Of a stretch of 64,000 bases of DNA, positions 6,092-60,264 are shown in pieces. The DNA lies in the NCBI GenBank assembly GCA_000992345.1, contig LBUA01000001.1:13542-77541 (forward strand), written 5' to 3'. Each line of letters starts with the position of its first letter. The first letter of the stretch is position 1. This DNA comes from Parcubacteria group bacterium GW2011_GWD2_38_12. GTDB lineage: Bacteria > Patescibacteriota > Minisyncoccia > GWC2-36-17. Below the pieces are notes generated by a model. It worked only from the letters and a program-made list of their open reading frames with translations. It searched no databases and was not told where the DNA came from. A program made the position numbers and the translations under genes.

Positions 6092-6634
6092 ATGGTTACA
6101 TTGACGAGTATAGCGGTTTTATCCGGGTTGCTCCTTGGTATTACTGCTCCCGGAAATATAATTTTAGACAGTAAAAATGATGATGTAAGGGGATTTGCGG
6201 TTGAATTTGCGATAGATGGCTGGTCGGAAAATAGTATGAAGGCCAGTAATTCAAGCGCTATTAAGATTTCTCAGAAGACTATAAAAAATAGGAATTACAT
6301 TGCCATTGAAAGTGGCGATGTAACTGTTACGGCTTATTCTTCGACTTTTGACCAGACGGATGATTCCCCGTTTATTATGGCTTCGGGAAAATATGTTTAT
6401 GACGGAGCAATCGCGGCAAATTTCTTGTCTATTGGCACTAAAGTCCGTTTTCCGGAAAAATACGGCGATAAGATATTCACTGTAGAAGACAGAATGAATA
6501 AAAGATATGATTATAGGATGGATATTTGGATGGAAACCAGACAAGAAGCTCAAAGTTTCGGTTTAAGAAAATTGAAATATGAAATAGTGAAAGATGATTC
6601 TGATGCATTTCATAATATTGTAGCTGTTAAATAA
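6092..6634 (+). CDS. 3D-domain cell-wall-associated protein (MltA/YuiC-like 3D domain)
   Basis: N-terminal hydrophobic signal/anchor. The C-terminal YSSTFDQTDDSPFIMASGKYVYDGAIAANFLSIGTKVRF...RMDIWM segment matches the 3D domain with its conserved Asp residues. Confidence 0.7.
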   Translation: MVTLTSIAVLSGLLLGITAPGNIILDSKNDDVRGFAVEFAIDGWSENSMKASNSSAIKISQKTIKNRNYIAIESGDVTVTAYSSTFDQTDDSPFIMASGKYVYDGAIAANFLSIGTKVRFPEKYGDKIFTVEDRMNKRYDYRMDIWMETRQEAQSFGLRKLKYEIVKDDSDAFHNIVAVK

Positions 6635-11668: not shown

Positions 11669-12079
11669 ATGGAAGAATTTAAAAAAACTTTAGGACATGG
11701 AAAAGAAGAAGAACATTCTCCCGAAGATTTAAGAAGAGAGATAGTGGAGATGATAGCAAAAATAAAAAAAGAAAACCCGAACGATCCCCATCTTATTAAT
11801 ATAAATACAGAAAATATTAAAGAAGAAGATAGGGAGATACAAAAAAGATATGAGCAACTCTTAAATAAAGGACTGACGTTGACCGAAGAGGAGTATAATG
11901 AATTTTTTAATGAATTTGTCATATATAGAAATAAGGTTTTTAAAGAAATTGAAGAGAAAAAGACACATTCAAGTCGCTTAGACTTTGTTGGTTATTTGGG
12001 AAATAAAATAGCAGGGAAAATTTATGTTCCCTGTAGGAAAAATTGGCCAAATAAAGGGGAGAGACCATTAAAACCATGA
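11669..12079 (+). CDS. Hypothetical highly charged (Glu/Lys-rich) protein between pheS and pheT. Its stop overlaps the pheT start (ATGA).
   Basis: ORF only. No recognisable motifs. Confidence 0.35.
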   Translation: MEEFKKTLGHGKEEEHSPEDLRREIVEMIAKIKKENPNDPHLININTENIKEEDREIQKRYEQLLNKGLTLTEEEYNEFFNEFVIYRNKVFKEIEEKKTHSSRLDFVGYLGNKIAGKIYVPCRKNWPNKGERPLKP

Positions 12080-14637
12080 AAATCTCATATAATTGGTTAA
12101 AAGATTTCGTGAACCTAAAAAGATATTCGGCTCCAGAGCTAGCGGATTTATTGACCATGAACTTTGCGGAAGTCGATGGGATTAAAACGCTTGGCGATGA
12201 TTTGATTTTTGATTTGAAAATTTTACCAGATAGAGCTTCGGATTGCCTGTCGCATTATGGAGTGGCGCGTGAGTTAGCTGCGCTAACAAAGTTAAAAGTT
12301 AAAAGTTTAAAGTTTAAAGTTAAAGAAAGTAAAAAAATAAATATAAAAGATTTGATAGAAGTTGAAAATCAAAATCCGGAGATTTGTAAAAGATATATTT
12401 CGCGAGTAATTTTGGATGTTAAGGTCGGGGCTTCTCCGAAATGGTTGAAAGAGAGACTTGAATCATTGGGTCAAAAATCTATAAATAATGTAGTGGACGC
12501 GACAAATTATGTGATGTTGGAACTGGGGCAACCGATGCATATTTTTGATTTTGATAAAATCAAAAATATGCAAGTTAAAAGTGAAAAGTCCATGCCTACC
12601 GGCAGGCAGGTAAAAGCGCAAAGTGAAATTTCAAAAATTATAATCCGAAAAGCAAAAGTCGGAGAAAAGATAACAACCCTAGATAATCAAGAAATAGAAC
12701 TAAATGAAGATGTTCTTGTAATTGTCGGCTCTGATACTCCAAACTCCAAACTCCAAACTCCAAGCTCTATTCTGGCAATTGCTGGCATAAAAGGCGGAAA
12801 GAAAGCGGAAATAGATCAAAATACCAAAAATATTATTTTGGAATCAGCGAATTTCAGCGCAGAGGCAATACGCAAAGCTTCAAAACTGACTGGAATAAGA
12901 ACAGAGTCTTCTGCCAGGTTTTCCGCTGATTTAGATCCTAATCTAGCGGGTATTGCTATTGAAAGATTGGCATCTTTATTGGTTCAAATTGCTGGAGGGG
13001 AAGCAGTTAGCGGGAAAATAGACATTTATCCACGCAAGGTTATGAGTGCGAAAGTTGCTGTTTCTTTGAATGACGTTATAAGTTTATTGGGAGAGAAAAT
13101 ATCCGAAAAAGAATTTTTGAGTATTTTTAAACAGCTAAACTTTAAGGTAGAAAAGATTTATCAAGAGAAAGAATTAATGAAATTGGCAAGGAAATTTATT
13201 GGCAGGCCATACAAATATGGGGCAAGCACAAGTCAAGATGCTCCCGAAACATTTGATTGCTCCAGTTTTGTTCAATATTTATATTGGCAAATTGGCATTG
13301 AGATTCCCAGAATTTCAGTTGAGCAGTTTTTATTTGCGCGTTCCATTGAAAAGAAAGATTTGAAAATTGGCGATCTGGCTTTTAGAAAAGGAGGAAGGCC
13401 ATATTTCTATAAAGAAACTCCAAGGGGTATTGGACATGTGGGGGTTTATATCGGGAAAGGCAGGGTTGTCCATGCATCCGGAGACAAAAAGAAAGTAATC
13501 GAAGAAAAATTAGAAACATTTTGCAAGAAAGACTTTCGCGGATTTGGAAGAATAGCTGATTTAGGGGATGAGGCTTTTGTCATCGAAATCCCCACATATA
13601 GGAGAGATATCAGAATGAAAGCTGATATTATTGAAGAGATTGGCCGGATTTACGGTTATCAAAATATAAAATCAAAATTGCCTGAAGGTATTCTGATGCT
13701 GCCTCAAAGAAATGATGAGATTTTTTGGGAAAATTTATCAAAAAACGCTTTAGTATCCACTGGATTTACTGAAGTTTATAACTACTCTTTTATCGGTGGA
13801 AAAGATTTAAAGGCGGGTTTTATTATTCCTGAAAATATTTTAGAACTTCAAAATTATATTAGCGATGACAAAAGATATTTGCGACCAAGCTTGATTTTTG
13901 GTTTTCTAAGAAATATCGAAGAAAATTTCAGGTATTTTAATGAGACGCGCATATTTGAAGTTGGCAAAATTTTCACCCTTAATGCAAAAGAAAAAATTTC
14001 TGAGAGAAAGTTTATTGGCGGGGCCATTTCCCTTAAAGGGAAAAGAAATAGCGCAAAAGCTGAGGAATTTTATGAATTAAAAGCCACCGTTGATTTATTG
14101 ATGCAGAAATTGGGTGTGCCGGAATTTTGGTATGATGATTATCAGGCCACGCCCGAGATCATTGAAGGAAAAATTTGGCACCATTTGCGTTTAGCGGAAA
14201 TTAAAATAGGTGACGAGAGAGTCGGATTTATTGGAGAAATAAATCCGAATGTCATTGGAAATTATGATATAGACGGAAGAGTGGCGATGTTTGAAATTGA
14301 TTTTGAAAAATTAGCGTGTCTCGCTAACGAAGATTTTATTTATAGTCCTATATCAAAATTCCCAGCCATAGAAAGAGATTTGGCGATACTTACTCCCATT
14401 AATGTGAAAGTTGATGATGTTTTAAATGTCCTGGAAAATATAGGCGGCCAGTTGCTCATAAATACGGATTTATTTGATGTTTATGAAGGCGATAATATTC
14501 AGGAGGGTAAAAAGAGTTTGGCCTTCCATTTGATATTCCAGTCGCGGGAAAGAACTTTATCCGATAAGGAAGTGGATGAAATTTTAGCCGAAATAATCGT
14601 TGCTTTATCCGAGGAGGGTTGGGAAATTAGAAGATAG
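12076..14637 (+). CDS. pheT: Phenylalanine--tRNA ligase beta subunit that lacks the N-terminal OB (B2) domain and carries an inserted NlpC/P60 domain plus two heptamer-repeat insertions
   Basis: MKISYNWLKDFV N-terminus, B3/4, a B5 motif pair (FKVEKI ... IPTYRRDIRMKADIIEEIGRIYGYQNI) and an FDX-ACB C-terminus. The NlpC/P60 block (RPYKYG, FDCSSFVQY, GHVGVYIG, VHAS) is embedded inside B5. Confidence 0.9.
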   Translation: MKISYNWLKDFVNLKRYSAPELADLLTMNFAEVDGIKTLGDDLIFDLKILPDRASDCLSHYGVARELAALTKLKVKSLKFKVKESKKINIKDLIEVENQNPEICKRYISRVILDVKVGASPKWLKERLESLGQKSINNVVDATNYVMLELGQPMHIFDFDKIKNMQVKSEKSMPTGRQVKAQSEISKIIIRKAKVGEKITTLDNQEIELNEDVLVIVGSDTPNSKLQTPSSILAIAGIKGGKKAEIDQNTKNIILESANFSAEAIRKASKLTGIRTESSARFSADLDPNLAGIAIERLASLLVQIAGGEAVSGKIDIYPRKVMSAKVAVSLNDVISLLGEKISEKEFLSIFKQLNFKVEKIYQEKELMKLARKFIGRPYKYGASTSQDAPETFDCSSFVQYLYWQIGIEIPRISVEQFLFARSIEKKDLKIGDLAFRKGGRPYFYKETPRGIGHVGVYIGKGRVVHASGDKKKVIEEKLETFCKKDFRGFGRIADLGDEAFVIEIPTYRRDIRMKADIIEEIGRIYGYQNIKSKLPEGILMLPQRNDEIFWENLSKNALVSTGFTEVYNYSFIGGKDLKAGFIIPENILELQNYISDDKRYLRPSLIFGFLRNIEENFRYFNETRIFEVGKIFTLNAKEKISERKFIGGAISLKGKRNSAKAEEFYELKATVDLLMQKLGVPEFWYDDYQATPEIIEGKIWHHLRLAEIKIGDERVGFIGEINPNVIGNYDIDGRVAMFEIDFEKLACLANEDFIYSPISKFPAIERDLAILTPINVKVDDVLNVLENIGGQLLINTDLFDVYEGDNIQEGKKSLAFHLIFQSRERTLSDKEVDEILAEIIVALSEEGWEIRR

Positions 14638-19936: not shown

Positions 19937-20944
19937 TTGTTTCTCAAAAAAATCGGAATAGATTTAGGCACGACAAATACTTTAGTTTTTATTCCCCACA
20001 AAGGGGTTGTTATCAATGAGCCGTCGGTGGTGGCGGTTTCTGTTATTGATAATTCTATTTTGGCTGTTGGCGTGGAAGCAAAAGAAATGGTTGGCCGCAC
20101 GCCTGAAACCATTGTAGCGCGCAGGCCGCTTAAAGACGGGGTAATAGCCGATTATAAAACTACCGAGGCAATGCTCAGATATTTTATAAATAAAGCTTTG
20201 GGGAGATTTCGATTTTTTAGGCCGGAAGTTATGGTTTCTGTTCCTGCGGGTATTACCTCTACGGAGAGAAGGGCAGTTATTGATGCGGCTATCCGTTCTG
20301 GCGCAAAAACTGCTTATCTCATTAAGGAGCCGGTGCTTGCCGCTATCGGAGCAGGTATTCCCATTAACGAAGCTATGGGCAATATGATTGTGAATATCGG
20401 GGGTGGCACAAGCGAAATAGCCGTTATATCGCTTGGCGGTATTGTTTCTTGCCATTCGATACGTGTGGCCGGGAATAAGCTCGACCAGTCTTTAGTTGAC
20501 TATATAAAGCGCAAGCATAATTTGGCTATTGGCGAAAGAACAGCAGAAGAAATAAAAATAACTATTGGTAGCGCTTTAGCTCAGAAAAAAGAAGAAGAGA
20601 TGGAAGTCAGGGGCCGAGATCTCATAACTGGTCTGCCCAAAACCATTAAAATAACTACAAATGAAACAGTAGAGGCTATGGCAGATCAATTAGAAGAAAT
20701 AATAAGAGCTATTAGGGGGGTTGTATCGCAAACTCCTCCGGAACTTTGCGCGGACATTATGGATAAGGGAATTGTTTTATCTGGTGGCACCGCTCTGCTT
20801 CGCAATCTTGATGAATTAATAATGAAATCTACAGGTGTTCCATCTTATGTCGCGCAAGATCCTTTGCTTTGTGTCGCAAAAGGTGCTGGCGTTACATTGG
20901 AGAATTTGGAAATTTATAAGAGATCAATAATGGCGAAAAAGTAA
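19937..20944 (+). CDS. mreB: Rod shape-determining actin homologue MreB (copy 1, intact)
   Basis: IGIDLGTTNTLVF phosphate-1 motif, GGGTSEIAVISLGG and LSGGTALLRNLD. Confidence 0.9.
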   Translation: MFLKKIGIDLGTTNTLVFIPHKGVVINEPSVVAVSVIDNSILAVGVEAKEMVGRTPETIVARRPLKDGVIADYKTTEAMLRYFINKALGRFRFFRPEVMVSVPAGITSTERRAVIDAAIRSGAKTAYLIKEPVLAAIGAGIPINEAMGNMIVNIGGGTSEIAVISLGGIVSCHSIRVAGNKLDQSLVDYIKRKHNLAIGERTAEEIKITIGSALAQKKEEEMEVRGRDLITGLPKTIKITTNETVEAMADQLEEIIRAIRGVVSQTPPELCADIMDKGIVLSGGTALLRNLDELIMKSTGVPSYVAQDPLLCVAKGAGVTLENLEIYKRSIMAKK

Positions 20945-20954
20945 GATTTTTGTC

Positions 20955-21075
20955 CAAATTTTAGAGCTGAAAGCGAATAAAATTTGGTTACAAAATCTTA
21001 CCCTGTTAAATTCCCGCGAAGCGGGGGCGCCGAAGGCGCATTTAACAGGGTGTGCTGGGCTTTGCGATTGTTTAA
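20955..21075 (+). repeat. Family-1 structured repeat element, copy 1 (shorter variant), directly upstream of the GT4 gene
   Basis: Shares about 50 nt of 5' extension with copy 2 (ttttagagc.gaaagc.aataaaattt) and the nested hairpin core cttaccctgttaaat-[ccccgcGAAGcggggg]-[cgccGAAggcg]-catttaacaggg. Confidence 0.7.
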
Positions 21076-21092
21076 ATTTATTTTTATAAAAT

Positions 21093-22199
21093 ATGATTAT
21101 TGGAATTCACAGTGTAGCTGCTTTTAAACCGCACAAAACCGGCGTTGAAAAATACGCTAAGAGATTAGTTGAGAATATGGCGATGCTTCCGGAAGCGAAG
21201 GAGCATCGTTTTATTTTGTATACAAATAAACAGAATCAATCTACTGTTACGGAAAGAATAAAGAATCAAGATTTGCCAGAAAATTTTTATTTGAAAATTT
21301 TGAAGTTTCCGTTTTTGTGGACGCAAATAAGACTAGCGGCGCATTTTATTTTTAAAAAACCCGATGCTTTTTTTGTTCCAGCTCATATTTTGCCGATAAT
21401 ATCGCATCCCAAAAACTCCACAGTGATGATTCACGACATTGCTTTTGAATTATTCCCCGAGGCGTATCCATTGTTTCATAGAAAATATTTGCGATTTACC
21501 ACAAAATACGCGCTAAAACACGCTGAAAAAATAATCGTGCCATCGGAAAGCACAAAGCAAGATATTTTGCGTTTTTATAAATGGGTGGACGAGAAAAAGA
21601 TTTTTGTTGTTTATCACGGAATGGAGTATAAACTGCTTGATTTAAAATTCTCCGAAGCACCACTCAATTTCCCCTATTTTCTTTATATCGGGAGATTAGA
21701 GTTTAAGAAAAATATTCTCGGAATTTTGCGGGCGTTTGATTTGTTTAAAGCGCAGTATAAATCTACGCACAAATTAGTGCTTGCCGGCGGTTTGGGTTTT
21801 GGCGGCGAGAAAATAAAAGAAATGGCGGCAAAACACAGATTTAAAAATGATATAATTTTAACAGGGTTTATTTCCGAAGAAAAAAAAGAAAATTTGTTTG
21901 TCTCTGCCGATATATTTTTGTTCCCATCTCTTTATGAGGGTTTTGGTTTTCCGATCTTGGAAGCGCAAGCTTTTGGCGTTCCAGTAATAACTTCATGTAT
22001 CTCTTCTATGCCTGAAGTATCCGGGGAGGGGGCTATTTTGGTTAATCCTCATAAGCCAGAAGAAATTAAAGATGCTATAATCAGGATTTTAATTGATGAA
22101 AGCTTGCGGAAAAATCTGATTGTAAAAGGCAGGGAAAATTTAAAAATATTTTCCTGGCAAAATTGCGCCCGAGAAACTTTAAGAATTATAACCGATTAA
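21093..22199 (+). CDS. Glycosyltransferase family 4 (GT-B, retaining)
   Basis: EX7E-type C-terminal motif region FPSLYEGFGFPILEAQAFGVPVITS. Confidence 0.8.
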   Translation: MIIGIHSVAAFKPHKTGVEKYAKRLVENMAMLPEAKEHRFILYTNKQNQSTVTERIKNQDLPENFYLKILKFPFLWTQIRLAAHFIFKKPDAFFVPAHILPIISHPKNSTVMIHDIAFELFPEAYPLFHRKYLRFTTKYALKHAEKIIVPSESTKQDILRFYKWVDEKKIFVVYHGMEYKLLDLKFSEAPLNFPYFLYIGRLEFKKNILGILRAFDLFKAQYKSTHKLVLAGGLGFGGEKIKEMAAKHRFKNDIILTGFISEEKKENLFVSADIFLFPSLYEGFGFPILEAQAFGVPVITSCISSMPEVSGEGAILVNPHKPEEIKDAIIRILIDESLRKNLIVKGRENLKIFSWQNCARETLRIITD

Positions 22200-22311: not shown

Positions 22312-22372
22312 AGATTGCTTCGTGCTTGATTGACCACAATCACCTACTGGGTCGGCAATGATAAAATGGTGT
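22312..22372. repeat. Family-2 repeat element, copy A; its inverted counterpart lies at 55393-55460
   Basis: agattgcttcgtgcttgattgaccacaatcacctactg equals the reverse complement of 55405-55444 with one mismatch. It contains the palindrome TGATTG-acca-CAATCA. Confidence 0.7.
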
Positions 22373-27674: not shown

Positions 27675-28726
<1,052 letters not shown>

Positions 28727-47306: not shown

Positions 47307-48023
47307 ATGACGATTGACTATTTGGTCAAATGTCAAAGGTTAAAAGTCAAGAAGTTTGCAAAACATATGGAACAACCATTTCAGAGGGCTCAAGCAACGG
47401 TCGCGGTGGAATCAGCTTCTCCTGTGATTAAGTTTAGAAAAGGGGACGCAATAGCTTCGGTGGCGTTGGGGCTTATCATCGGATTTTTTACGCCGTTTAT
47501 TTTAAATAATATCGGACGGACTTTGCCTCTTCAGGATTTTTATTTTGTAATCTTCCCTATTGTGGCGCTGATGGGAATGTGGATTGTTTTTTTGATTGCC
47601 GCGAGAGTTCCGGTTTTGGTGCAGATTACGAAATTTGGCGCAATTGGCGCAGCTAATACCGTAATTGATTTTGGGATATTGAATTTTCTGTCTTTCAAAT
47701 TCCAGATTTTTAGCGGAGGAAGTCTGACTATATTGAATATTATTTCTTTTAGTGTCGCCGTCATAAATAGTTATTTTTGGAACAAGCACTGGACTTTTAA
47801 ATCCGAGCAAAATAATTCCAGCAAACAATTTATAGAGTTTATTGTTGTGTCCGTTATAGGAGTATTAATAAATACTGGAATAGTTTATTTAATGACGACT
47901 TTGGTTATTCCTTTTGCTGGTATTTCCGAGCAGATTTGGTTAAATATCGGCAAATTGATGGCAACATTTATTTCTCTTGCATGGAACTTCGCTGGTTATA
48001 AATTTATAGTGTTTAGAAAATAA
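47307..48023 (+). CDS. GtrA-family polyprenol-phosphate-sugar flippase-like membrane protein with an N-terminal extension
   Basis: C-terminal about 130 aa with 4 TM helices and GtrA hallmarks (KFGAIGAANTVIDFGILNFL ... FWNKHWTF ... WNFAGYKFIVFRK). Confidence 0.65.
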   Translation: MTIDYLVKCQRLKVKKFAKHMEQPFQRAQATVAVESASPVIKFRKGDAIASVALGLIIGFFTPFILNNIGRTLPLQDFYFVIFPIVALMGMWIVFLIAARVPVLVQITKFGAIGAANTVIDFGILNFLSFKFQIFSGGSLTILNIISFSVAVINSYFWNKHWTFKSEQNNSSKQFIEFIVVSVIGVLINTGIVYLMTTLVIPFAGISEQIWLNIGKLMATFISLAWNFAGYKFIVFRK

Positions 48024-48034
48024 GGGCTTTATTA

Positions 48035-48198
48035 AAATTTTAGAGCAGAAAGCAAATAAAATTTAGATAGTAAATCTTAACCTTGTTAAATCCCCGCGGA
48101 GCTGGGGCGCCAAAGGCGCATTTAACAGGGTACTCGATTTTGAAATAAAATTTTGCGCACTCCGCAAAGCTTCGTTTCAAAATTTCGATAAAATCGGC
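48035..48198 (+). repeat. Family-1 structured repeat element, copy 2 (full length); its last three bases are the ATG of the downstream gene
   Basis: About 85% identical to 53725-53871. Nested hairpins: ccttgttaaat/atttaacaggg enclosing ccccgc-gga-gctgggg and gcgcc-aaa-ggcgc, then ttttgaaat...[tttgcg-cactc-cgcaaa]...cgtttcaaaa, then ..aaaatcggcATG. Confidence 0.75.
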
Positions 48199-48684
48199 AT
48201 GTATGAGATTTATAAATTTTTACATGGAATTGGAATTTTAATGACTGTTGGCGTGATTACCGCGTCGCTTATTTACGGTTGGTATAAAAAATTATTCCCA
48301 AATAATAAATTATTAACCAAAATCCAATTTCCATATAAGTGGATATCTCCGTCGGTGAAAATTGGCCTTGTTGTTTTAATTATTTCCGGCCTTGGGATGT
48401 ATGCGGAGAGAGCGGAACAATTCAATAGTTCGGCGGTTTTTTGGATAAAAATGGGTTTTGTTTTGGCGCTTGTAATAAATAATATTTGGTTAAACAGCAT
48501 TTTAAAACCAAAAGGCAAAAAGATATTTTCCGATCCAGTTCTTGCCAATTCGCCGGAAGCCTTAAAACTTAAAAAGACATTTAATTTTGCAGAAAATCTG
48601 TCTTTATTTTTATGGTTCACAACCATGATTGTAAGTTTTCTTTTGCCTGAGGGCCGTGAAGAGCGCGGAGGAAGAGAATTTTAA
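48199..48684 (+). CDS. Hypothetical membrane protein (4 TM)
   Basis: ORF with TM helices. The start codon is supplied by the upstream repeat element. Confidence 0.4.
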   Translation: MYEIYKFLHGIGILMTVGVITASLIYGWYKKLFPNNKLLTKIQFPYKWISPSVKIGLVVLIISGLGMYAERAEQFNSSAVFWIKMGFVLALVINNIWLNSILKPKGKKIFSDPVLANSPEALKLKKTFNFAENLSLFLWFTTMIVSFLLPEGREERGGREF

Positions 48685-52445: not shown

Positions 52446-53636
52446 ATGTATAGAAATAACACTCGCCACGGCGAGGGTTCGTTTGGTAGATTTTCCGGCA
52501 ATAGAAAGCGACCAGCGCGTCGCGCGCGTCGCGGTCAAAATATTGATGTTTCAAAATTCATCAATAAAGCGGTCATAACCGAAACAACAGAACATTTTGT
52601 TCCCGAACATTTGTTCGCTGATTTTAATATTGATGCTCGCTTAAAAGCGAATGTCTTAGCTAAAGGATATAATACTCCAACTCCGATTCAGGATAAATCA
52701 ATCCCGCATATTTTGCGCGGATCCGATATTGTGGGTATTGCCAATACCGGAACCGGGAAAACCGGAGCATTTCTTGTTCCTCTTATTCAGAAAGTATTGA
52801 TAAATCATAAAGAAAAAGTTTTGATTATCGTGCCGACTCGCGAATTGGCTTTGCAAATTGATAAAGAATTCAAGAGTTTTGCCAGGGGATTGAATATGTT
52901 TTCCGTGTGTTGTGTCGGCGGCGCGCCTATCGGCAAACAGATTTCTGAATTGAGATATTATAATCATTTCATAATCGGTACCCCGGGCAGATTGAAAGAT
53001 TTGGCTCAAAGGGGCTTTATATCTTTTCCTCAGTTTTCTGCGATTGTCTTAGATGAAGCGGACAGAATGCTTGATATGGGATTTATTGATGATATGAAAT
53101 TTATAATGTCTAAGATGCCCGAGAAACGCCATACGTTATTTTTCTCGGCGACAATGTCTCGAGAAATTGAAGCGCTTATTAAAAATTTTCTACGCGACCC
53201 GATATCTATCTCGGTAAAAACCGGAGATACTCCAAAAAATGTTGATCAAGATATTGTGAGGGTATCGGCGGATAATAAAATAGATATATTGCATAATCTT
53301 CTGAAGAATGAAGAATTCAGCAAGGTGTTGATATTCGGCAGAACAAAACATGGCGTGGAAAAATTATCCGAGATACTGATTGCACGCGGATTTAAAGCGG
53401 AGTCAATCCATGGAGACAAAAATCATGCTAAGAGACAACGGGCCTTGGGACTTTTTATTGATAATCGCATTCAGATTCTTGTTGCTACTGATGTGGCGGC
53501 GCGCGGATTGGATATCCCCAATGTGAGCCATGTCATTAACTACGATATTCCTGCCGCGTACGAAGATTATGTTCACCGCATTGGTCGAACTGGTCGCGGC
53601 AATAAAAAAGGCAAAGCGCTCACATTTATTGGATAA
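52446..53636 (+). CDS. DEAD-box ATP-dependent RNA helicase with an Arg-rich N-terminal tail
   Basis: Q-motif, Walker A ANTGTGKT, DEAD (VLDEADRMLD), SAT and HRIGRTGRG. Confidence 0.9.
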   Translation: MYRNNTRHGEGSFGRFSGNRKRPARRARRGQNIDVSKFINKAVITETTEHFVPEHLFADFNIDARLKANVLAKGYNTPTPIQDKSIPHILRGSDIVGIANTGTGKTGAFLVPLIQKVLINHKEKVLIIVPTRELALQIDKEFKSFARGLNMFSVCCVGGAPIGKQISELRYYNHFIIGTPGRLKDLAQRGFISFPQFSAIVLDEADRMLDMGFIDDMKFIMSKMPEKRHTLFFSATMSREIEALIKNFLRDPISISVKTGDTPKNVDQDIVRVSADNKIDILHNLLKNEEFSKVLIFGRTKHGVEKLSEILIARGFKAESIHGDKNHAKRQRALGLFIDNRIQILVATDVAARGLDIPNVSHVINYDIPAAYEDYVHRIGRTGRGNKKGKALTFIG

Positions 53637-53724
53637 GGGCTTCGTCTAAAATTTGAATCCGCCCAGTCTCGATTTTTCTTGAAAAATCGAGGATGCTCAA
53701 TTACAAAGTAATCGGCACTGGCGG

Positions 53725-53868
53725 AGCACAAATTTTAGAAACAAAACCTTACCCTGTTAAATCCCCGCGAAGCGGGGGTGCGAAAGCGCATTTAACAGGG
53801 TGCTCATTTTTGAAACGAAATTTTGCGCACTCCGCAAAGCTCCGTTTCAAAATTTTGACAAAATCGGC
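53725..53868 (+). repeat. Family-1 structured repeat element, copy 3 (full length); it ends at the ATG (53869) that most likely starts the ABC-F gene
   Basis: cttaccctgttaaat-[ccccgcGAAGcggggg]-[tgcgAAAGcgca]-tttaacaggg ... ttttgaaacg-aaat-[tttgcg-cactc-cgcaaa]-gctc-cgtttcaaaa-ttttgacaaaatcggcATG. Confidence 0.75.
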
Positions 53869-55377
53869 ATGTCGCAAAATGCAAAGCCCCGTAGCGAACG
53901 AAGTTCTGCTGCAGGAGAAGTTATAATCAGATTTGATGAAGTGTCTTTTGAACACGGACCCCAAAAACCCATTCTTGAAGAGGTGGGTTTTTCGGTGCGT
54001 AGAGGAATGAAAGTCACGCTGATGGGGCAAAATGGCGCCGGAAAAAGCACTATTTTTCAACTCATTACCGGAGCGGCAAAACCCGAATCAGGCGCGGTGC
54101 ATATCGGGTCGGATATTATTGTCGCTATTTCGCGGCAAGTAATTCCTCGCGATCAGTTGGATTTAACAGTGCGGGAATTTTTTGAGAAATGTTTTGATAA
54201 AAAAGTTTACGATATAGATCCTAAAATTGATGAGGTGTTGGAAGTGGTGAATTTAAAAGGCCACGAAAAAATGCACAAAAGGATTATTAAGTCATTTTCC
54301 GGCGGTCAGCAGGCGCGGCTTCTTTTGGCGTCGGCGCTCATTCAAGATCCCGATGTATTGCTTCTTGATGAGCCGACCAACAATTTGGATAAAGCCGGTA
54401 TCGCGCATCTGACAAATTTTTTAGTTAATTATAAGAAGACTTGTATTGTTATTTCTCACGACGCGGATTTTCTCAACGCTTTCACGCAGGGCGTTTTGTA
54501 TCTTGATATATTTACTCGCAAAATAGAACAATATGTCGGTAATTATTTTGATGTGGTGAAACAAATCTCTGTTCGAATAGAAAAAGAAAATAGAAAGAAT
54601 GCGTTATTAGCAAAAGAGATTCAGGAGAATAAAGACAAGGCAAACTTTTTTGCGCACAAAGGCGGACGTATGAGGTTGCTCGCTAAACGTATGCGTGAGA
54701 AAGCCGAGGAGATGGAAGAAGAAAAAGTTGATGTGCGAAAAGAAGATAAACCCATCAGGCCGTTTATTATTCCTTTCCAAGAGGATTTGATAGGGGAGAT
54801 TATAAATATCTCATCTTTCACGACGATGAAAAATCATCAGCCAGCAGAACACAAAGCCAAAATTTCAATGAAGAAAAATCAGCACTTGCTCTTATCCGGC
54901 CCCAATGGCATCGGCAAAAGCACATTACTAAAATCCATCGCCAAAGGTACTGTAGGGGGCGTGGCGATTGCCCGAGGTGTCCGCGTCGGGTATTATTGCC
55001 AAGACTTTTCTACGCTTAATTTTGATGAAACTGTTTATGAATCGCTCGTGTCGGCGATGGAGAAAGCGACCGGAAAAAAAGACGATGAATTCATCCGTGC
55101 TATCGCTGCGAGTTTTATGATTAGAGGTGATATGGTTTATTCTAAAATCGGCAGTTTGTCCGAAGGGCAAAAGGGGCTCGTTGCTTTTGCGCGACTGGTA
55201 ATTCAAAAACCCGGCCTTTTGATACTTGATGAGCCAACCAATCACATCAATTTTCGCCATTTACCAGTCATCGCTGGAGCGCTCAACAAATACGACGGCG
55301 CGATGATTCTCGTCAGCCATGTCCCCGAATTCGTCTCCCAAATCCGCATTGATGAGATATTGGATTTAGAGAAATAG
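53869..55377 (+). CDS. ABC-F family ATPase (tandem ABC domains, no TMD; ribosome-associated EttA/Uup-like). Start placed at the ATG supplied by the repeat; the annotated ORF extends upstream to 53800 through the repeat.
   Basis: Two Walker A motifs (GQNGAGKST; GPNGIGKST), two signatures (FSGGQQARLLLASAL; LSEGQKGLVAFARL) and an inter-domain linker with a charged arm. Confidence 0.85.
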   Translation: MSQNAKPRSERSSAAGEVIIRFDEVSFEHGPQKPILEEVGFSVRRGMKVTLMGQNGAGKSTIFQLITGAAKPESGAVHIGSDIIVAISRQVIPRDQLDLTVREFFEKCFDKKVYDIDPKIDEVLEVVNLKGHEKMHKRIIKSFSGGQQARLLLASALIQDPDVLLLDEPTNNLDKAGIAHLTNFLVNYKKTCIVISHDADFLNAFTQGVLYLDIFTRKIEQYVGNYFDVVKQISVRIEKENRKNALLAKEIQENKDKANFFAHKGGRMRLLAKRMREKAEEMEEEKVDVRKEDKPIRPFIIPFQEDLIGEIINISSFTTMKNHQPAEHKAKISMKKNQHLLLSGPNGIGKSTLLKSIAKGTVGGVAIARGVRVGYYCQDFSTLNFDETVYESLVSAMEKATGKKDDEFIRAIAASFMIRGDMVYSKIGSLSEGQKGLVAFARLVIQKPGLLILDEPTNHINFRHLPVIAGALNKYDGAMILVSHVPEFVSQIRIDEILDLEK

Positions 55378-55409: not shown

Positions 55410-55460
55410 TCCATGGCCATTGCGATTCAGTAGGTGATTGTGGTCAATCAGGCACGAAGC
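55393..55460. repeat. Family-2 repeat element, copy B (inverted relative to 22312-22372)
   Basis: cagtaggtgattgtggtcaatcaggcacgaagcaatct is the reverse complement of 22316-22353 (37/38). Confidence 0.7.
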
Positions 55461-55548
55461 AATCTCTCCGTAATAGAATGTCGCCGAAAGGCGGCTTTTT
55501 AAAATTTGCGTTTTTTACGATTTCAGTGTATAATATAAAGAATAAATT

Positions 55549-55803
55549 ATGCAAAAACCTGATGTAAAAATAAAAGATTGGATTGGGATAGGCGAAAGCA
55601 GGCCCTTGTGCTCTCCTCTGTATGCGGTTGTTTGCAATATTAGCCATGATGATATAGAAGTGGTATACCTTCAAAACGATCACAAGCCGGTAAAACAAGA
55701 AGTTATTTGGGATGGAGAAACGTGGCAATTTAATACTAATTCCGGCATTACCTTGAGAGAAGGTGAGGGATATGAGTTTATACAGATTTTAAAAAATAGA
55801 TAA
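55549..55803 (+). CDS. Hypothetical small protein (orphan cassette gene 1)
   Basis: ORF only. Confidence 0.3.
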   Translation: MQKPDVKIKDWIGIGESRPLCSPLYAVVCNISHDDIEVVYLQNDHKPVKQEVIWDGETWQFNTNSGITLREGEGYEFIQILKNR

Positions 55804-55816
55804 AAAATAAAAATAA

Positions 55817-56170
55817 ATGGGAAAAATATTGTCAATAAATCACAAGCTTGGTAAAGCGGATATATCTTTAGATGATGTTTTGATTAGGCTTTTTATTAAG
55901 TATTATAATGGCACATGCTCTGAAATAAGAATATGGAAGCTACCATTAAAAAGAAGTTTTTGGAGCATGTTTAATGTTAAAAATTTAATTTGGGCTATTT
56001 ATAATGACGACGCTAAATATATTCATGGTTGGTTTTCAAGAGATGGTGATATTCTGGAAGTTTTAACAAGGAAGATTGAAAAATGTAATAATTATAATGA
56101 TCTTAAAGAATTGCTTATTAAATTAGAGAATATTATAAATGGAATTTCTTTACCACATGATGAGTTATAA
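55817..56170 (+). CDS. Hypothetical small protein (orphan cassette gene 2)
   Basis: ORF only. Confidence 0.3.
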   Translation: MGKILSINHKLGKADISLDDVLIRLFIKYYNGTCSEIRIWKLPLKRSFWSMFNVKNLIWAIYNDDAKYIHGWFSRDGDILEVLTRKIEKCNNYNDLKELLIKLENIINGISLPHDEL

Positions 56171-56191
56171 AATTTTTTAAATTAGCGAAAT

Positions 56192-56407
56192 ATGAAAAAT
56201 ATAATTATTATTTTAATAATTTTAGTAGCCGCCATCGGTAGCGGATTGTTTTATTGGTATGAGTATAGACCGAATAAAATAAGAAGTTATTGCAATGATA
56301 AGGCACAAGATACTTTAACCGGCTCACTTCGAGAATTTGTAGCGGTTCAAGCCAACTATGAAGATAATTATAAAAAATGTTTAAGAGGTAATGGAATAAG
56401 AGAGTAA
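56192..56407 (+). CDS. Hypothetical small signal-anchored protein with two Cys (orphan cassette gene 3)
   Basis: N-terminal TM/signal helix. Confidence 0.3.
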   Translation: MKNIIIILIILVAAIGSGLFYWYEYRPNKIRSYCNDKAQDTLTGSLREFVAVQANYEDNYKKCLRGNGIRE

Positions 56408-56423
56408 GTTAAATAAAATTTTT

Positions 56424-56747
56424 ATGGGAAATTTAACAGATGCTTTAAAAAAATATAATGGAAATTCGTTGCCAGAAGATATAATTAAGGGGTTGCAAGA
56501 TGGTGGTTATACTCATGGATTAAATCCGGCGACAGAGGAACCGATTTTTCAAAACTATTTAACTGCTTTATTAAACTCAAAAACTAATAAAGAATTGTCT
56601 GTATCTTTAAATAATTTTAAGGATGTGATAAAAGAATTCTCGCTTTCAAGTTTTGAGTCAACAAAAGCATTGAATCTTTGGACAATGGTATTGGCGTTTG
56701 CCACAACAGCATTAGTATTTGTGACAATCGTAGCGATATTTTATTAA
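56424..56747 (+). CDS. Hypothetical C-tail-anchored small protein (orphan cassette gene 4)
   Basis: C-terminal TM helix. Confidence 0.3.
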   Translation: MGNLTDALKKYNGNSLPEDIIKGLQDGGYTHGLNPATEEPIFQNYLTALLNSKTNKELSVSLNNFKDVIKEFSLSSFESTKALNLWTMVLAFATTALVFVTIVAIFY

Positions 56748-56754
56748 GAGTAAA

Positions 56755-57129
56755 TTGTTTGAAAATATGAATTTTACTGAAGCAAACAAAATTTTTAAAA
56801 TTTGGAGTGAATGGTATTGGCCATCTCACTTTATACTGCATTCAGTTTTTCTCAATAAAATACCGGAATCTTTTTTGCCATATCAAAAAAATGTTTTAGA
56901 GGAGGCACTAAATATTATAGCAAAGCAATATTATGACAATGGCGATTTTAAGGTCTCCAAAAATATCCAAGAATCTATCGCGTCTCTTGCGGCTTATGTA
57001 AGAGATGATGATGCCTTACAGCAAGTGTCTGACAGATTATCTGATGTTAAGATGAGAGAGGCTGTACTTATTTATATTTCAAATTTTAAAAAAGATTGGA
57101 AAAATTGGTTAGACAAACAAGAGGATTAA
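56755..57129 (+). CDS. Hypothetical small protein, Trp-rich N-terminus (orphan cassette gene 5)
   Basis: ORF only. Confidence 0.3.
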   Translation: MFENMNFTEANKIFKIWSEWYWPSHFILHSVFLNKIPESFLPYQKNVLEEALNIIAKQYYDNGDFKVSKNIQESIASLAAYVRDDDALQQVSDRLSDVKMREAVLIYISNFKKDWKNWLDKQED

Positions 57130-57217
57130 AAAGAAAGGCATATGTCTCATAAGTCAAGATAAAATAAACCTTTTTAAAATTTTTTAACAAAATTTAATTG
57201 CTTGAGATAGTTGTATT

Positions 57218-57598
57218 TTGGATAATATGAATAATAAATCAGAGGAAATTATTAAAAAATCAATTGAACAAGCAATTATTAACGCTGTTAGTAAAAAAAT
57301 ATATCCACCACAGCAACCAGGCTTTTTAGGCAGATTTTTAAAAAAATCGCCAGGAAAATACATAGACCTAAATATCGAAGAAGATAAGAGTGGTTGCAAT
57401 AAGATAATATTTAAATTAGAAAATTATAAAAATCCAGTTAGTATCGATCTTGAAAAGATTTTTGAAGGAATATTTTGGACAGAATTTTTCGATGCTGATA
57501 AGTATACAGAAGTCAGTGAATACGTTGATAAATTTGAAAAATTAAATACATGGGATGAAAAAGCAAACTTTTTAAGCCAATGTTTAAAAAGTTTTTAA
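57218..57598 (+). CDS. Hypothetical small protein (orphan cassette gene 6)
   Basis: ORF only. Confidence 0.3.
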   Translation: MDNMNNKSEEIIKKSIEQAIINAVSKKIYPPQQPGFLGRFLKKSPGKYIDLNIEEDKSGCNKIIFKLENYKNPVSIDLEKIFEGIFWTEFFDADKYTEVSEYVDKFEKLNTWDEKANFLSQCLKSF

Positions 57599-57604
57599 TT
57601 CGGT

Positions 57605-58132
57605 ATGCATTCAAAAGAAAACAATTTTGCGTATATTGATGGGGCGAATTTACATAATGGCATTGCCGGTTTGGGTTGGAAGCTGGATTATAAAAGATTT
57701 AGAGTGTGGCTGTCTGATAAATACGGCATAAAAAGCGCCTATATTTTTATTGGTTTAATACCGAAATATAAAGATTTATATAAATATCTCCAAGAATGCG
57801 GATTTACCTTGATATTCAAAGAGGTGGTGTATAACAGCGATGGGAAACCAAAAGGGAATTGTGATGCGGATTTAGTTTTGCAATCAGTATGCGATGCGTA
57901 TAAAAATAAATTTGATAAAGCAATTATCGTTTCGAGTGATGGCGATTATGCCGGACTGGTTAAATTTCTTAAGGAACGCGGAAAATTAAAAACAATACTG
58001 TCGCCTCATACTAAAAATCTCTGCTCTATTCTTCTAAAAAGGACGAATGCGCCGATTGCTTATTTGAATGATCAAAAAACAATTTTACGGGATAAAAAAG
58101 AAAAAGCCCCCGATGCGGACAAAACCGCATAG
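57605..58132 (+). CDS. NYN-domain (LabA-like, PIN-related) predicted ribonuclease
   Basis: NFAYIDGANLHNG ... CDADLVL ... IVSSDGDYAGLV, which are the hallmark Asp residues of the NYN/LabA fold. Confidence 0.75.
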   Translation: MHSKENNFAYIDGANLHNGIAGLGWKLDYKRFRVWLSDKYGIKSAYIFIGLIPKYKDLYKYLQECGFTLIFKEVVYNSDGKPKGNCDADLVLQSVCDAYKNKFDKAIIVSSDGDYAGLVKFLKERGKLKTILSPHTKNLCSILLKRTNAPIAYLNDQKTILRDKKEKAPDADKTA

Positions 58133-58262
58133 GGGTCTTTTTCGTAAGTATTAACTATATAATAGCAAGCGCTTGTAAAAAGTCAATAGTCAGTAAAATG
58201 CCTTATTGCATCTATATTTTATAATGTTTTGATAAGTAAAAATTTAAAAAATATATAATAAA

Positions 58263-58296
58263 AATGCGATGATTTACCGCCATCGCATTTTTTTGT
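58263..58296 (+). terminator. Strong rho-independent terminator 2 nt before the helicase start codon
   Basis: atgcgatg-atttaccgcc-atcgcat followed by ttttttt. Confidence 0.7.
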
Positions 58297-58297
58297 T

Positions 58298-59977
58298 ATG
58301 ATATGGGCTATGAAACAAAATACGGCTCTCAAAATTTTAAAAACGGGACGGAATGTGTATTTGACCGGTGCTCCAGGGAGCGGAAAGACGCATATTTTAA
58401 ACGAATATATAAACTATCTGAGAAATCACGGCATTTCTGTTGGCGTGACCGCTTCCACTGGTATCGCGGCGACGCACATTGGTGGCGTTACGATTCATTC
58501 TTGGTCCGGTATGGGAGTGAAAGATTTTTTATCCGACGATGATATCTCGTATATCGTGCATAAAAAATATTTGCAAAAGCGTTTTGATAAAACGCGAGTG
58601 CTTGTCATTGATGAAGTTTCAATGCTGAGCCCCAAGATACTCGACAATGTTGATCGGGTGTGTCGCGCGGCGAAAGGAAATCAAAATCCTTTTGGCGGAA
58701 TGCAAGTTGTGCTTTCCGGAGATTTTTTCCAATTGCCTCCGATTACGCAGGGTGGCTCTTCTGTGCAATTTGTAAATACTTCTCGCGCGTGGAAAGAAAT
58801 GGACATTCGCGTTTGTTATTTGGACGAGCAATTCAGGCACGAAGATAACACGCTGGAGGCGATATTAAATGAAATGCGCGGCGGATTTGTCTCGCAAAAA
58901 ACGCGGGATGTTTTGGCGAGCCAATGCGAGAAAAATTTTGCAAATGGTATAGCGCCGACGCGGCTCTATGCGCACAATATTGATGTGGATATTCTTAATG
59001 AGAGGGAACTTGCCAAATTGCCGGGCGAAGCGCAAGAATTTGAAATGCAAATAAAAGGCAAAGATATTCTTGTTAAATCATTGAAGAAAAGCATATTGGC
59101 GCCGGAATTTTTGAAATTAAAAAAAGACGCCGTAGTGATGTTTGTAAAAAATAATTTTGATGCGGGATATGTGAATGGCACCTTAGGGATTATTGATGGA
59201 TTTGATAATGATGGCGCGCCGATTGTACGTTTATTTTCCGACAAAAAAATTACCGTGTTACCGGTCCAGTGGGCTGTTGAAGAAGACGGTAAAATATTGG
59301 CGAGAGCAGAACAATTGCCGCTTCGCCTCGCGTGGGCGATTATTACCATCCACAAAAGCCAAGGGATGAGTATGGATGCGGCCGAAATTGATTTATCCAA
59401 GGCGTTTGTGCCCGGGCAAGGATATGTGGCATTGTCGCGCTTGCGAACGCTCGCCGGGCTTGTGCTTTTGGGGATGAACGAAATGGCATTTGCTGTGCAT
59501 CCGGAAGTCGCGACGCTTGATAGGAGTTTGCTTTTGAATTCGGAAAAATGGGAGCAGGAAATAGCGCAATTTGACAATGACAAACTCCGTATAATGCACA
59601 AAGATTTTATTTTGAAATTTGGTGGCACGACAGATGAAAAAGAAATAGCAAAAAATAAAAATAAAGAAAAAGAAAACAGTAAAGACCGCGTCTCTACCCA
59701 CGAGAAAACAAAAGAGTTTGTGAATTTGGGATTGTCTCTCGCTGAAATCGCGAGCGGCAGAGAGATGACTATAGGAACAATCATTTCTCATTTGGAAAAA
59801 CTCAAAGAGCTCGGAGTGGAAATGAATTTTGAAAAATTTAAACCCAATGAAAGCGATTTAAGAAAAATAAAAGAGGCGTTCGCGGCGACCGGCGACACAA
59901 AACTATCTCCCGTCCACCGCCTTCTTTGCGGAGAATATTCCTACGACGACATCCGCCTAGCGCGATTATTTTTATAA
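58298..59977 (+). CDS. Pif1/RecD-like superfamily-1 DNA helicase with a C-terminal HTH domain
   Basis: Walker A GAPGSGKTH, VIDEVSML, QLPPI, and C-terminal LAEIASGREMTIGTIISHL. Confidence 0.85.
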   Translation: MIWAMKQNTALKILKTGRNVYLTGAPGSGKTHILNEYINYLRNHGISVGVTASTGIAATHIGGVTIHSWSGMGVKDFLSDDDISYIVHKKYLQKRFDKTRVLVIDEVSMLSPKILDNVDRVCRAAKGNQNPFGGMQVVLSGDFFQLPPITQGGSSVQFVNTSRAWKEMDIRVCYLDEQFRHEDNTLEAILNEMRGGFVSQKTRDVLASQCEKNFANGIAPTRLYAHNIDVDILNERELAKLPGEAQEFEMQIKGKDILVKSLKKSILAPEFLKLKKDAVVMFVKNNFDAGYVNGTLGIIDGFDNDGAPIVRLFSDKKITVLPVQWAVEEDGKILARAEQLPLRLAWAIITIHKSQGMSMDAAEIDLSKAFVPGQGYVALSRLRTLAGLVLLGMNEMAFAVHPEVATLDRSLLLNSEKWEQEIAQFDNDKLRIMHKDFILKFGGTTDEKEIAKNKNKEKENSKDRVSTHEKTKEFVNLGLSLAEIASGREMTIGTIISHLEKLKELGVEMNFEKFKPNESDLRKIKEAFAATGDTKLSPVHRLLCGEYSYDDIRLARLFL

Positions 59978-59982
59978 AATCA

Positions 59983-60264
59983 ATGCCTTATTATGTTTAT
60001 ATTCTAGAATGCGCGGATGGGTCGCTCTATGTCGGATCCACAAATGATTTGGAAAAAAGATTACATCAGCACAACAATTCAAAATCCGGAGCCCATTATA
60101 CAAAAATGAGAAGACCGGTCGCTCTGAAGTATTCCGAGAAGTTGAAAAATCTCAGTGAGGCGCTCAAAAGAGAAATAGAGATTAAAAGATGGAAGAGAGA
60201 GAAGAAACTAAAATTAATTAAAAGTCATAAATTTACCGAAAAGGAAAAGAATGCTTTTTATTAA
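59983..60264 (+). CDS. GIY-YIG nuclease-domain protein (YhbQ/UPF0213-like, about 93 aa)
   Basis: YYVYILECADGSLYVGSTNDLEKRLHQHN ... E.K.W. Confidence 0.8.
   Translation: MPYYVYILECADGSLYVGSTNDLEKRLHQHNNSKSGAHYTKMRRPVALKYSEKLKNLSEALKREIEIKRWKREKKLKLIKSHKFTEKEKNAFY

Follow-up and report, generated by a model that had tools for sequence, protein, structure and literature searches.

Repetitive extragenic palindromic (REP) sequences and bacterial interspersed mosaic elements (BIMEs), known from Enterobacteria and Pseudomonas, are mobilized by RAYT transposases; a REP is a single imperfect palindrome of 20–40 nt with a GTAG-type head, and the genome carries a cognate RAYT (Y1 HUH transposase) gene, typically flanked by REPs. 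REP sequences, Correia repeats and the intercistronic sites of phage T7 are also precedents for hairpins in mRNA processing and stability. In a 64,000-nt stretch of DNA from Parcubacteria group bacterium GW2011_GWD2_38_12 (contig LBUA01000001.1, positions 13,542–77,541, forward strand; hereafter the window, whose numbering is used throughout), a repeat had been flagged over 147 nt (53725–53871) in front of the gene for an ABC-F ATPase, with the original prediction that it supplies the start codon, and probably the promoter and leader, of two unrelated genes. The observation is confirmed here, and its interpretation is mostly wrong. The flagged 147 nt make up the 3′ two-thirds of a non-coding modular palindromic element of 180–240 nt, which belongs to a large family of nested palindromes filling short spacers between co-directional genes of Parcubacteria, a group of the candidate phyla radiation (CPR). 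In the way it works, the element comes closest to REP/BIME, Correia and other repeats of the miniature inverted-repeat transposable element (MITE) type, yet departs from each of them in its defining features.

Our preferred reading, to which we give a probability of roughly 0.6, is that of an interspersed modular palindrome that invades operon-internal spacers and survives only if it is co-transcribed and fully self-folding, the two cistrons staying effectively adjacent. Such a palindrome would spread at the DNA level by a mechanism leaving no target duplication, would be transcribed as part of the operon, and would persist only in a form folded wholly from stop to start, so that the two cistrons are not separated in space; any influence on the processing, stability or coupling of mRNA would be secondary. 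What is unusual about the element is its perfect three-way-junction core, found across phyla, its interchangeable central modules and its orientation-specific placement from stop to start.

Anatomy of the element

The repeat is present three times in the window, as copy 1 (20942–21051), copy 2 (48021–48198) and copy 3 (53634–53868). Copies 2 and 3 show 87% identity across 99 nt (48104–48202 versus 53774–53872) and share the 3′ end AAAATCGGC, which is followed at once by an ATG (48199 and 53869), so that the repeat does adjoin the start codons of two unrelated genes, as had been noticed. A repeat thus lies where it was flagged, but it is larger than was thought and begins at the upstream stop codon (53634 in copy 3, 48021 in copy 2). 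The core pattern TGTTAAAT-N22–34-ATTTAACAGGGT has five matches in the window, counting both strands of the three sites, versus none in 100 shuffles, and a covariance model run over the whole window with filters off gives significant scores at the three copies only. Weaker model matches at 6632, 7195 and 7718 are ordinary long terminator hairpins and were rejected as copies of the element. Copy 2 (181 nt) has a predicted folding energy of −52.6 kcal/mol and copy 3 (238 nt, 53634–53871) one of −88.7 kcal/mol, and the 147–148-nt 3′ portions of these copies are both far more stable than shuffled sequences (z = −5.2 and −4.2).

Full copies span exactly the distance from the TAA of the upstream gene to the ATG of the downstream gene and fold into three adjacent helices, namely P1, a three-way junction and P3. 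P1 is a long hairpin whose 5′ strand opens with the stop codon, UAAGG being paired to CCUUA. The central module is a perfect three-way junction composed of ACCCTGTTAAAT, two hairpins and ATTTAACAGGGT, in which an outer stem of 12 bp (ACCCUGUUAAAU/AUUUAACAGGGU) encloses the two hairpins with zero unpaired junction bases. P3 is again a hairpin, and its 3′ strand finishes at position −1 of the AUG.

All features of the three copies lie on the + strand. In copy 3, the TAA (53634–53636) of the DEAD-box helicase gene (52446–53636) forms the first three bases of P1 (53634–53750), a long hairpin TAAGG..TCTAAAATTTG ... CAAATTTTAGA..CCTTA with an extra nested palindrome at its tip, as delineated by the fold and by alignment with copies 1 and 2. 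The junction, ACCCTGTTAAAT–CCCCGCGAAGCGGGG–GTGCGAAAGCGC–ATTTAACAGGGT, occupies 53751–53801 (fold, pattern, model R1 at 38–39 bits, and covariation), and P3, TTTTGAAACG..TTTGCGCACTCCGCAAA..CGTTTCAAAA, occupies 53802–53868 (fold and repeat family D2), ending with AAAATCGGC before the ATG of the ABC-F ATPase gene (53869–55377). Copy 2 is built in the same way: P1 (48021–48079; fold and junction comparison) opens with the TAA (48021–48023) of a GtrA-like gene (47307–48023), and is followed by the junction module (48080–48131; fold, pattern and model) and by P3 (48132–48198; fold and repeat family), which ends with AAAATCGGC before the gene for a 161-aa membrane protein (48199–48684). Copy 1 has P1 (20942–20999; fold and alignment), opening with the TAA (20942–20944) of mreB (19937–20944), and the junction (21000–21051; pattern, fold and model). 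It lacks P3; a 41-nt A/T-rich tail (21052–21092) follows instead, the element ending 42 nt before the ATG at 21093 of a family-4 glycosyltransferase (GT4) gene. The gene pairs around the three copies are unrelated, being mreB/GT4, GtrA-like/membrane protein (then dnaX) and DEAD-box helicase/ABC-F.

Origin of the stop and start codons

Homologous sequences show that the stop and start codons belong to the genes themselves, as ancestral features not donated by the element. The 120 best ABC-F homologues measure 481–506 aa, with none longer than 506 aa, and 60 inspected N-termini begin M[SA]Q[GN]E[VI]I[VI]RF, whereas the window protein reads MSQN, a private 12-aa insertion, and then EVIIRF. This N-terminal match makes ATG 53869 the ancestral start and leaves the 525-aa reading from GTG 53800 without support. 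The earlier choice of the ATG over the GTG therefore stands, in agreement with homologue lengths, N-termini and the gene callers, which use this start for the ABC-F on 24 contigs from Rifle aquifer groundwater metagenomes (e.g., ANAN16-1 scaffold_80). The private insertion is an in-frame 36-nt sequence, AKPRSERSSAAG (53881–53916), directly after ABC-F codon 4, and is absent in all 59 closest homologues inspected; it opens with GCAAAGCCCCGT, resembling GCAAAGCTCCGT of P3 just upstream, and may be a partial duplication of the element.

For the membrane protein, the start at ATG 48199 is conserved, MYEIYKF.. aligning with the M(A/V)YEIFK.. N-termini of 17 homologues, and one database gene call (P0121, 199 aa) wrongly reads through the element. 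It should be noted that open reading frame (ORF) callers are misled in both cases, since the 525-aa and the 199-aa extended ORFs both run through the element, and masking is advised in the annotation of CPR genomes. Three more distant relatives share the synteny DUF8128/TrwB-like, GtrA, membrane protein and dnaX, and their GtrA/membrane-protein junction consists of TAA, 11–19 A/T-rich nt and ATG, compared with TAA, 175 nt and ATG in the window. The GtrA C-terminus is conserved at these empty junctions (..YKF[IV]VFKK in the relatives, ..VFRK in the window), and comparison of the filled with the empty junctions reveals neither a duplicated flank nor a leftover of the ancestral spacer. Since the empty junction is too short to hold a promoter, the GtrA/membrane-protein pair was operonic before the element arrived. 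At the mreB/GT4 junction, relatives keep the same TAA and ATG, the space between them being filled with other, unrelated hairpin-forming sequences of 78–126 nt. Each of the three relatives concerned (L256, L257 and L258) has a different, lineage-specific filler. As to ABC-F, the upstream regions of orthologues with 90%, 80% and 78% identity are wholly different and contain no element. The proposal that the repeat supplies start codons is thus contradicted by the conservation of the MSQN.. and MYEI.. N-termini in genomes without the element and by empty junctions that keep TAA and ATG.

Promoter, terminator and leader tests

The original prediction went further and proposed a portable promoter with a structured 5′ leader, giving the start codon and bringing ABC-F and the membrane protein under the joint control of one RNA-binding factor. 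What speaks for this is a sequence of about 150 nt, near-identical upstream of both genes and ending at the ATG, together with one 10-of-12 sigma-70 match in copy 2 (TTAACA-18-TAAAAT, with TTAACA contributed by the junction arm) and a mild enrichment of promoter-like spacing, TTAACA-N16–18-TAnnWT being found in 10/67 related elements versus 2/67 at a control offset (p = 0.03). The TTGACA hexamer noted there is indeed present near the ATG, in copy 3 only (53855–53860, within the 3′ strand of P3), but it begins 14 nt, not 15, before the ATG and ends 8 nt before it. Because of this 8-nt gap, it cannot serve as a −35 box, and copy 2 has TTCGAT in its place. Furthermore, copy 3 carries no promoter-like site on the + strand, and the −10 match is missing in 85% of the family members, so the promoter is not a conserved property. 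With the start codons ancestral, with ABC-F orthologues of 78–90% identity having unrelated upstream sequences without the element, and with the element in other genomes preceding many unrelated housekeeping genes, including serS, queA and tsaC-like genes (by our own reading of N-termini), the co-regulation model is very improbable. The element is neither a promoter, nor a start-codon donor, nor a dedicated regulatory leader of ABC-F.

Other candidates of this kind were rejected as well. A sigma-70 promoter cassette is at odds with the lack of a + strand site in copy 3 and with an arrangement that is not conserved among copies, and a leaderless start from a −10 box in P3 would have an A/T hexamer 4 nt from the ATG (own count), about 2 nt too close. 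An intrinsic terminator was dismissed because P1, the junction, P3 and the ATG abut each other and no U-tract follows a hairpin. Terminator-like calls within the element amount to one weak + strand call in P3 of copy 2, its copy 3 counterpart being called on the − strand only.

The junction module across phyla

The central three-way-junction module is separately portable, as it is exchanged at orthologous sites, nests within itself and occurs in many phyla. A pattern scan of a genome collection with one genome per species gave at least 119 matches, against a chance expectation of about a dozen (by our own arithmetic rather than from a tool). Among the matches listed, they span Patescibacteria (many classes), Desulfobacterales, Desulfatiglandales, Omnitrophota, Bacteroidota and Cloacimonadota, and further occur in metagenome-assembled genomes labelled Acidobacteriota, Armatimonadota, Spirochaetales and Gammaproteobacteria; among the unique cores from these, 81/107 contain two abutting hairpins, most with zero junction nucleotides and with loops that are usually 3 nt, often GAA or TTC. 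A core common to Patescibacteria, Desulfobacterota, Omnitrophota, Bacteroidota and others is a sign either of horizontal spread or of a conserved recognition factor. In viral contigs, the pattern occurs in only 3 of 2.9 million, on which ground a phage origin was rejected.

In a model-based alignment of 139 distinct rows, pairing holds in 98.1% of the cells. Each of the 14 inner-helix pairs has changed on both sides and occurs as four pair types, and the covariation score is 0.389, compared with 0.09 for shuffles and at most 0.05 for slid partners. G-U pairs are very rare, pairing being almost purely Watson–Crick, and a test for RNA-level selection through strand asymmetry in folding energy found none. 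Watson–Crick-only pairing and the lack of strand asymmetry mean that the palindromes are maintained as Watson–Crick duplexes, which points to maintenance or copying at the DNA level over classic RNA-level selection.

The core appears to be undescribed. No Rfam 15 family, with the uup motif and ABC-F leaders included, reached its gathering score in the window or at 18 related loci, and a permissive search (E up to 10) with two full copies returned chance-level matches only; a full-text literature search that included the literal motif found no description of the three-way-junction core. The hammerhead, twister and other ribozymes were rejected as well, there being no unpaired conserved junction bases.

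That the outer stem of the junction hardly changes across phyla whereas the inner hairpins vary freely might suggest a protein site at the DNA level, i.e., that a recombinase, nucleoid protein or replication protein binds the 12-bp arm (ACCCTGTTAAAT) as a cruciform or as folded single-stranded DNA, with the hairpins only presenting the arm. The Watson–Crick-only pairing and the recurrent GAA or TTC loops would fit such a site, which we nevertheless consider improbable: the search pattern and model account for part of the conservation of the arm, other palindromes can occupy the center, the arms, as read from the sequence, face the wrong way for a dif-like or attC-like site, and no candidate protein has been identified. 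The motif TGTTAAAT matches E. coli dif over the outermost 8 nt of its XerD arm, which is a lead only; a dif/Xer-like site as such was rejected, as the arms are wrongly oriented and an XerC-like partner is missing.

Modularity and signs of mobility

Exchange of modules is seen at the orthologous GtrA/membrane-protein junctions. In a relative whose protein is 71% identical (L260, 1–204), P1 and P3 are kept and the center is swapped for another palindrome, CCCCGCACATAATTC...GAATTATGTGCGGGG; P3 is about 88% identical (own count) between the window and this relative. In another, with 73% protein identity (L259, 1252–1431), the stop codon is TAG and its partner in P1 has changed from CCTTA to CCCTA, and the junction module has decayed, its 3′ arm being lost. 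The base of P1 covaries with the stop codon (TAAAG/CTTTA, TGAAG/CTTCA and TAGGG/CCCTA). Other central palindromes within P1/P3 scaffolds are found at L142, L195, L144 and L219, the order of the inner hairpins is flipped relative to P1/P3 between two sets of loci (L009, L033 and L047 versus L072, L080, L096, L105 and L108), and whole junction modules are nested or in tandem at L024, L117 and L010. In Desulfobacterales (L011, L017, L027, L091, L102 and L111), the junction lies within a unit of some 230 bp delimited by inverted repeats (CTTCGTAAAAAGTC ... GACTTTTTACGA) and found in unrelated flanking contexts, and its inner hairpins carry compensatory changes.

Within the window, P1 of copy 3 contains at 53657–53728 an extra nested palindrome, with a stem CCGCCCAGT/ACTGGCGG and inner hairpins, that copies 1 and 2 lack; this is the second case in which a palindrome has been inserted into the tip of a hairpin. 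There is also a second repeat family, a 43-nt inverted pair at 22312–22354 and 55423–55465 that is 93% complementary. Each of these repeats lies just 3′ of a gene preceded by a three-way-junction element (GT4 and ABC-F, respectively), and the same sequence occurs upstream of the ABC-F orthologue in L131, beside a GTCATTCTGAACGGAGCGGAGCGCAGTGAAGAATC-type hairpin.

Placement from stop to start

A composite metagenome scan with the pattern AAACCTT-N0–1-ACCCTGTTAAAT recovered at least 75 distinct elements, and the placement counts in this paragraph refer to the matches listed. The upstream ORF stops at the first triplet of the element (TAAAG[GAC]G[CT]TTT..; two TAG) in 40/69, where one third would be expected for a random frame (p = 3e-5), and downstream ATGs follow conserved P3 ends (..TTTCTAAC, ..TTTGGT, ..TTGGC and ..ATCGGC). 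For the 58 CPR junctions with both ORFs, the median length is 184 nt, the median folding energy −70 kcal/mol and the proportion of paired bases 75%; pairing begins no more than 2 nt from the first base of the stop codon in 49/58 and ends no more than 3 nt from the ATG in 47/58, so that the presence of further copies at gene starts is borne out. Control tandem junctions of 100–330 nt from the same contigs are flush at the stop in 33/93 and at the ATG in 37/93 (Fisher p = 2e-9 for the stop and 7e-7 for the ATG, elements versus controls). With lineage-specific fillers at the mreB/GT4 junctions of relatives and 35–40% of control junctions flush with helices too, structured stop-to-start spacers may be general in CPR genomes.

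Orientation is consistent too. All assigned flanking ORFs, 69 upstream and 65 downstream of the at least 75 copies, are co-oriented with the element, and no reversed copy was seen among these elements, of which the element's own strand alone was examined. The window, with 37% G+C, has a strongly positive GC skew throughout; in 10/84 loci, however, the element and its genes run against the locus-wide skew, with both flanking ORFs clear in at least three (L009, L170 and L247). These opposite-skew loci indicate that orientation tracks transcription, not the replication strand.

Such placement could reflect a dedicated intercistronic RNA device, in which the full fold would put the stop codon and the AUG side by side and a terminating ribosome would re-initiate across about 180 nt by shunting or termination–reinitiation. 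Its working analogy is the leader of cauliflower mosaic virus, where a stop stands at the 5′ foot and a restart at the 3′ foot of a stable structure; that system, however, is eukaryotic/viral and depends on scanning, and we know of nothing like shunting established in bacteria over about 180 nt. The model can draw on helices that are flush at stop and AUG far oftener than in control junctions, on an orientation that always follows the genes, also against the GC skew, on the covariation of P1 with the stop codon, and on empty junctions that are short operonic spacers. Nearly all window genes also lack a Shine–Dalgarno motif, a scarcity that fits the detection of an anti-Shine–Dalgarno motif in only 48% of Parcubacteria (PMC9297842). 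Still, strand-neutral, Watson–Crick-only pairing is unlike selected RNA structures, the center is freely exchangeable, the junction occurs outside any stop–start context in other phyla, copy 1 does without P3, and the 35–40% of control junctions that are flush as well imply that compaction alone explains part of the signal. Therefore, a re-initiation device of this kind is possible but unlikely. A ribosome recycling factor gene and the ABC-F gene are present, neither of them specific for re-initiation. A helix relay, in which the 3′ strand of P1 would pair with the 5′ strand of P3 after termination, was rejected, the complementarity by eye being only 3–6 bp.

Alternatively, the element may serve mRNA processing or stability, with RNase III cuts or an exonuclease block leaving a 3′ hairpin on the upstream transcript and a 5′ hairpin on the downstream one. 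Near-perfect helices of 12–25 bp in the sense transcript, the high stability and paired fraction noted above, the intercistronic position co-oriented with genes and, as general knowledge, the precedent of known repeat families would all suit such a role. It should be noted, however, that the antisense strand would fold equally well, which leaves the strict orientation unexplained, and that a hairpin flush with the AUG is expected to hinder initiation; hence, processing as the primary function seems unlikely. The same geometry raises the question of how the downstream cistron is translated with its start against a structure of median −70 kcal/mol over the whole stop-to-start region.

Weighing DNA-level against transcript-level constraint

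Two kinds of evidence have to be reconciled. Watson–Crick-only pairing, strand symmetry, nesting, swappable centers, presence/absence variation and cross-phylum spread speak for a mobile or recombining REP/MITE-type repeat at the DNA level, whereas strict sense orientation, helices flush with stop and start, stop-codon covariation and P3 conservation speak for constraint at the transcript level. The reading as an invading palindrome that persists only when co-transcribed and folded from stop to start accommodates both. In CPR bacteria, genomes are very small, operons are tight and many genomes do without Shine–Dalgarno pairing, and a repeat placed in a single orientation in stop–start gaps presumably leaves the genes expressed.

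Several observations weigh against this reading. No transposase, integrase or other mobilizing enzyme is present among the approximately 60 ORFs of the 64-kb window, and none is linked to the element. The ancestral spacer is gone without a trace, and there is no target duplication or footprint to define an insertion mechanism. Strict co-orientation, including the opposite-skew loci, and exact boundaries fit selection on mRNA better than purely selfish DNA, and the conservation of P3, at about 88% where the flanking protein reaches only 71% identity, may point to purifying selection for a function.

Comparison with described repeats

Like REP/BIME, the element belongs to the short, non-coding, interspersed extragenic palindromes that are present many times per genome, often right after stops, are co-transcribed, and have a sequence that is family-specific within a genome. 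In contrast to REP/BIME, it has no GTAG head and consists of three helices over 180–240 nt rather than of a single imperfect hairpin, there is no RAYT among the ORFs of the window, its core spans phyla rather than one genus, and it lies strictly co-oriented with genes, flush from stop to start. With Correia repeats (the Neisseria miniature insertion sequences, NEMIS) and MITEs in general, it shares a small, non-autonomous, gene-adjacent and co-transcribed form with inverted-repeat ends; such repeats can carry promoter-like hexamers and RNase III sites, and gene calls may run into them, as P0121 does here. It is likewise non-coding and multi-copy (three in 64 kb and at least 75 in metagenomes) and absent at orthologous or syntenic sites in relatives. 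It differs from MITEs in that the comparison of filled with empty junctions shows no target-site duplication, that no related autonomous insertion sequence was found, that its center is modular and exchangeable, and that only about 15% of copies carry promoter-like sites.

The palindrome-associated transposable elements (PATEs) derived from IS200/IS605 resemble it in having no strict terminal inverted repeats, no target duplication, hairpins at both ends and a fixed orientation. Apparent insertion 3′ of a fixed TAA is another likeness, as the element starts at or after TAA in 3/3 window copies and in 40/69 metagenome copies among the matches listed. However, no TnpA/TnpB partner was identified for it, the downstream spacer is not kept, unlike in a simple insertion 3′ of the target, and its orientation follows the genes despite opposite GC skew at no fewer than three loci, whereas the PATE family follows the replication strand. 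Integron attC sites, too, are folded imperfect palindromes of 60–140 nt after gene ends, with GTTRRRY/RYYYAAC boxes and a variable, sometimes branched center, and their host range overlaps (sediment Desulfobacterota, Omnitrophota and others). An attC identity was rejected, for the order of the boxes is inverted on both strands (GTTAAAT ... ATTTAAC versus RYYYAAC ... GTTRRRY). The element also has neither extrahelical bases nor an unpaired central spacer, its stems are perfect and free of bulges, its copies are single and scattered rather than in arrays next to intI, and the window contains no integrase.

More speculatively, the element might be a selected stop-to-start device whose full fold lets ribosomes of Shine–Dalgarno-poor CPR bacteria re-initiate over a 180-nt insertion, a bacterial counterpart of shunting; separately, the pan-phylum ACCCTGTTAAAT junction would act as the recognition module of a mobilizing or binding protein and thus constitute a new class of mobile palindrome. 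We regard this combination as conceivable but rather improbable.

Other features of the window

A few further features of the window deserve mention. The phenylalanyl-tRNA synthetase beta subunit (12076–14637) has an NlpC/P60 peptidase domain (aa 376–485) between B3_4 and B5, which is an unusual architecture. Immediately 5′ of mreC lies a second mreB, broken into two overlapping ORFs (27696–28262 and 28259–28726) that correspond to Pfam MreB positions 1–165 and 180–325; it may be a pseudogene, or the split may result from a frameshift or from faulty assembly. Downstream of ABC-F, the region 55549–60264 contains six small ORFs lacking Pfam matches and then genes that encode an NYN-domain protein, a PIF1-type helicase with HTH_40 and a GIY-YIG nuclease, and may be a mobile or defense-related islet.

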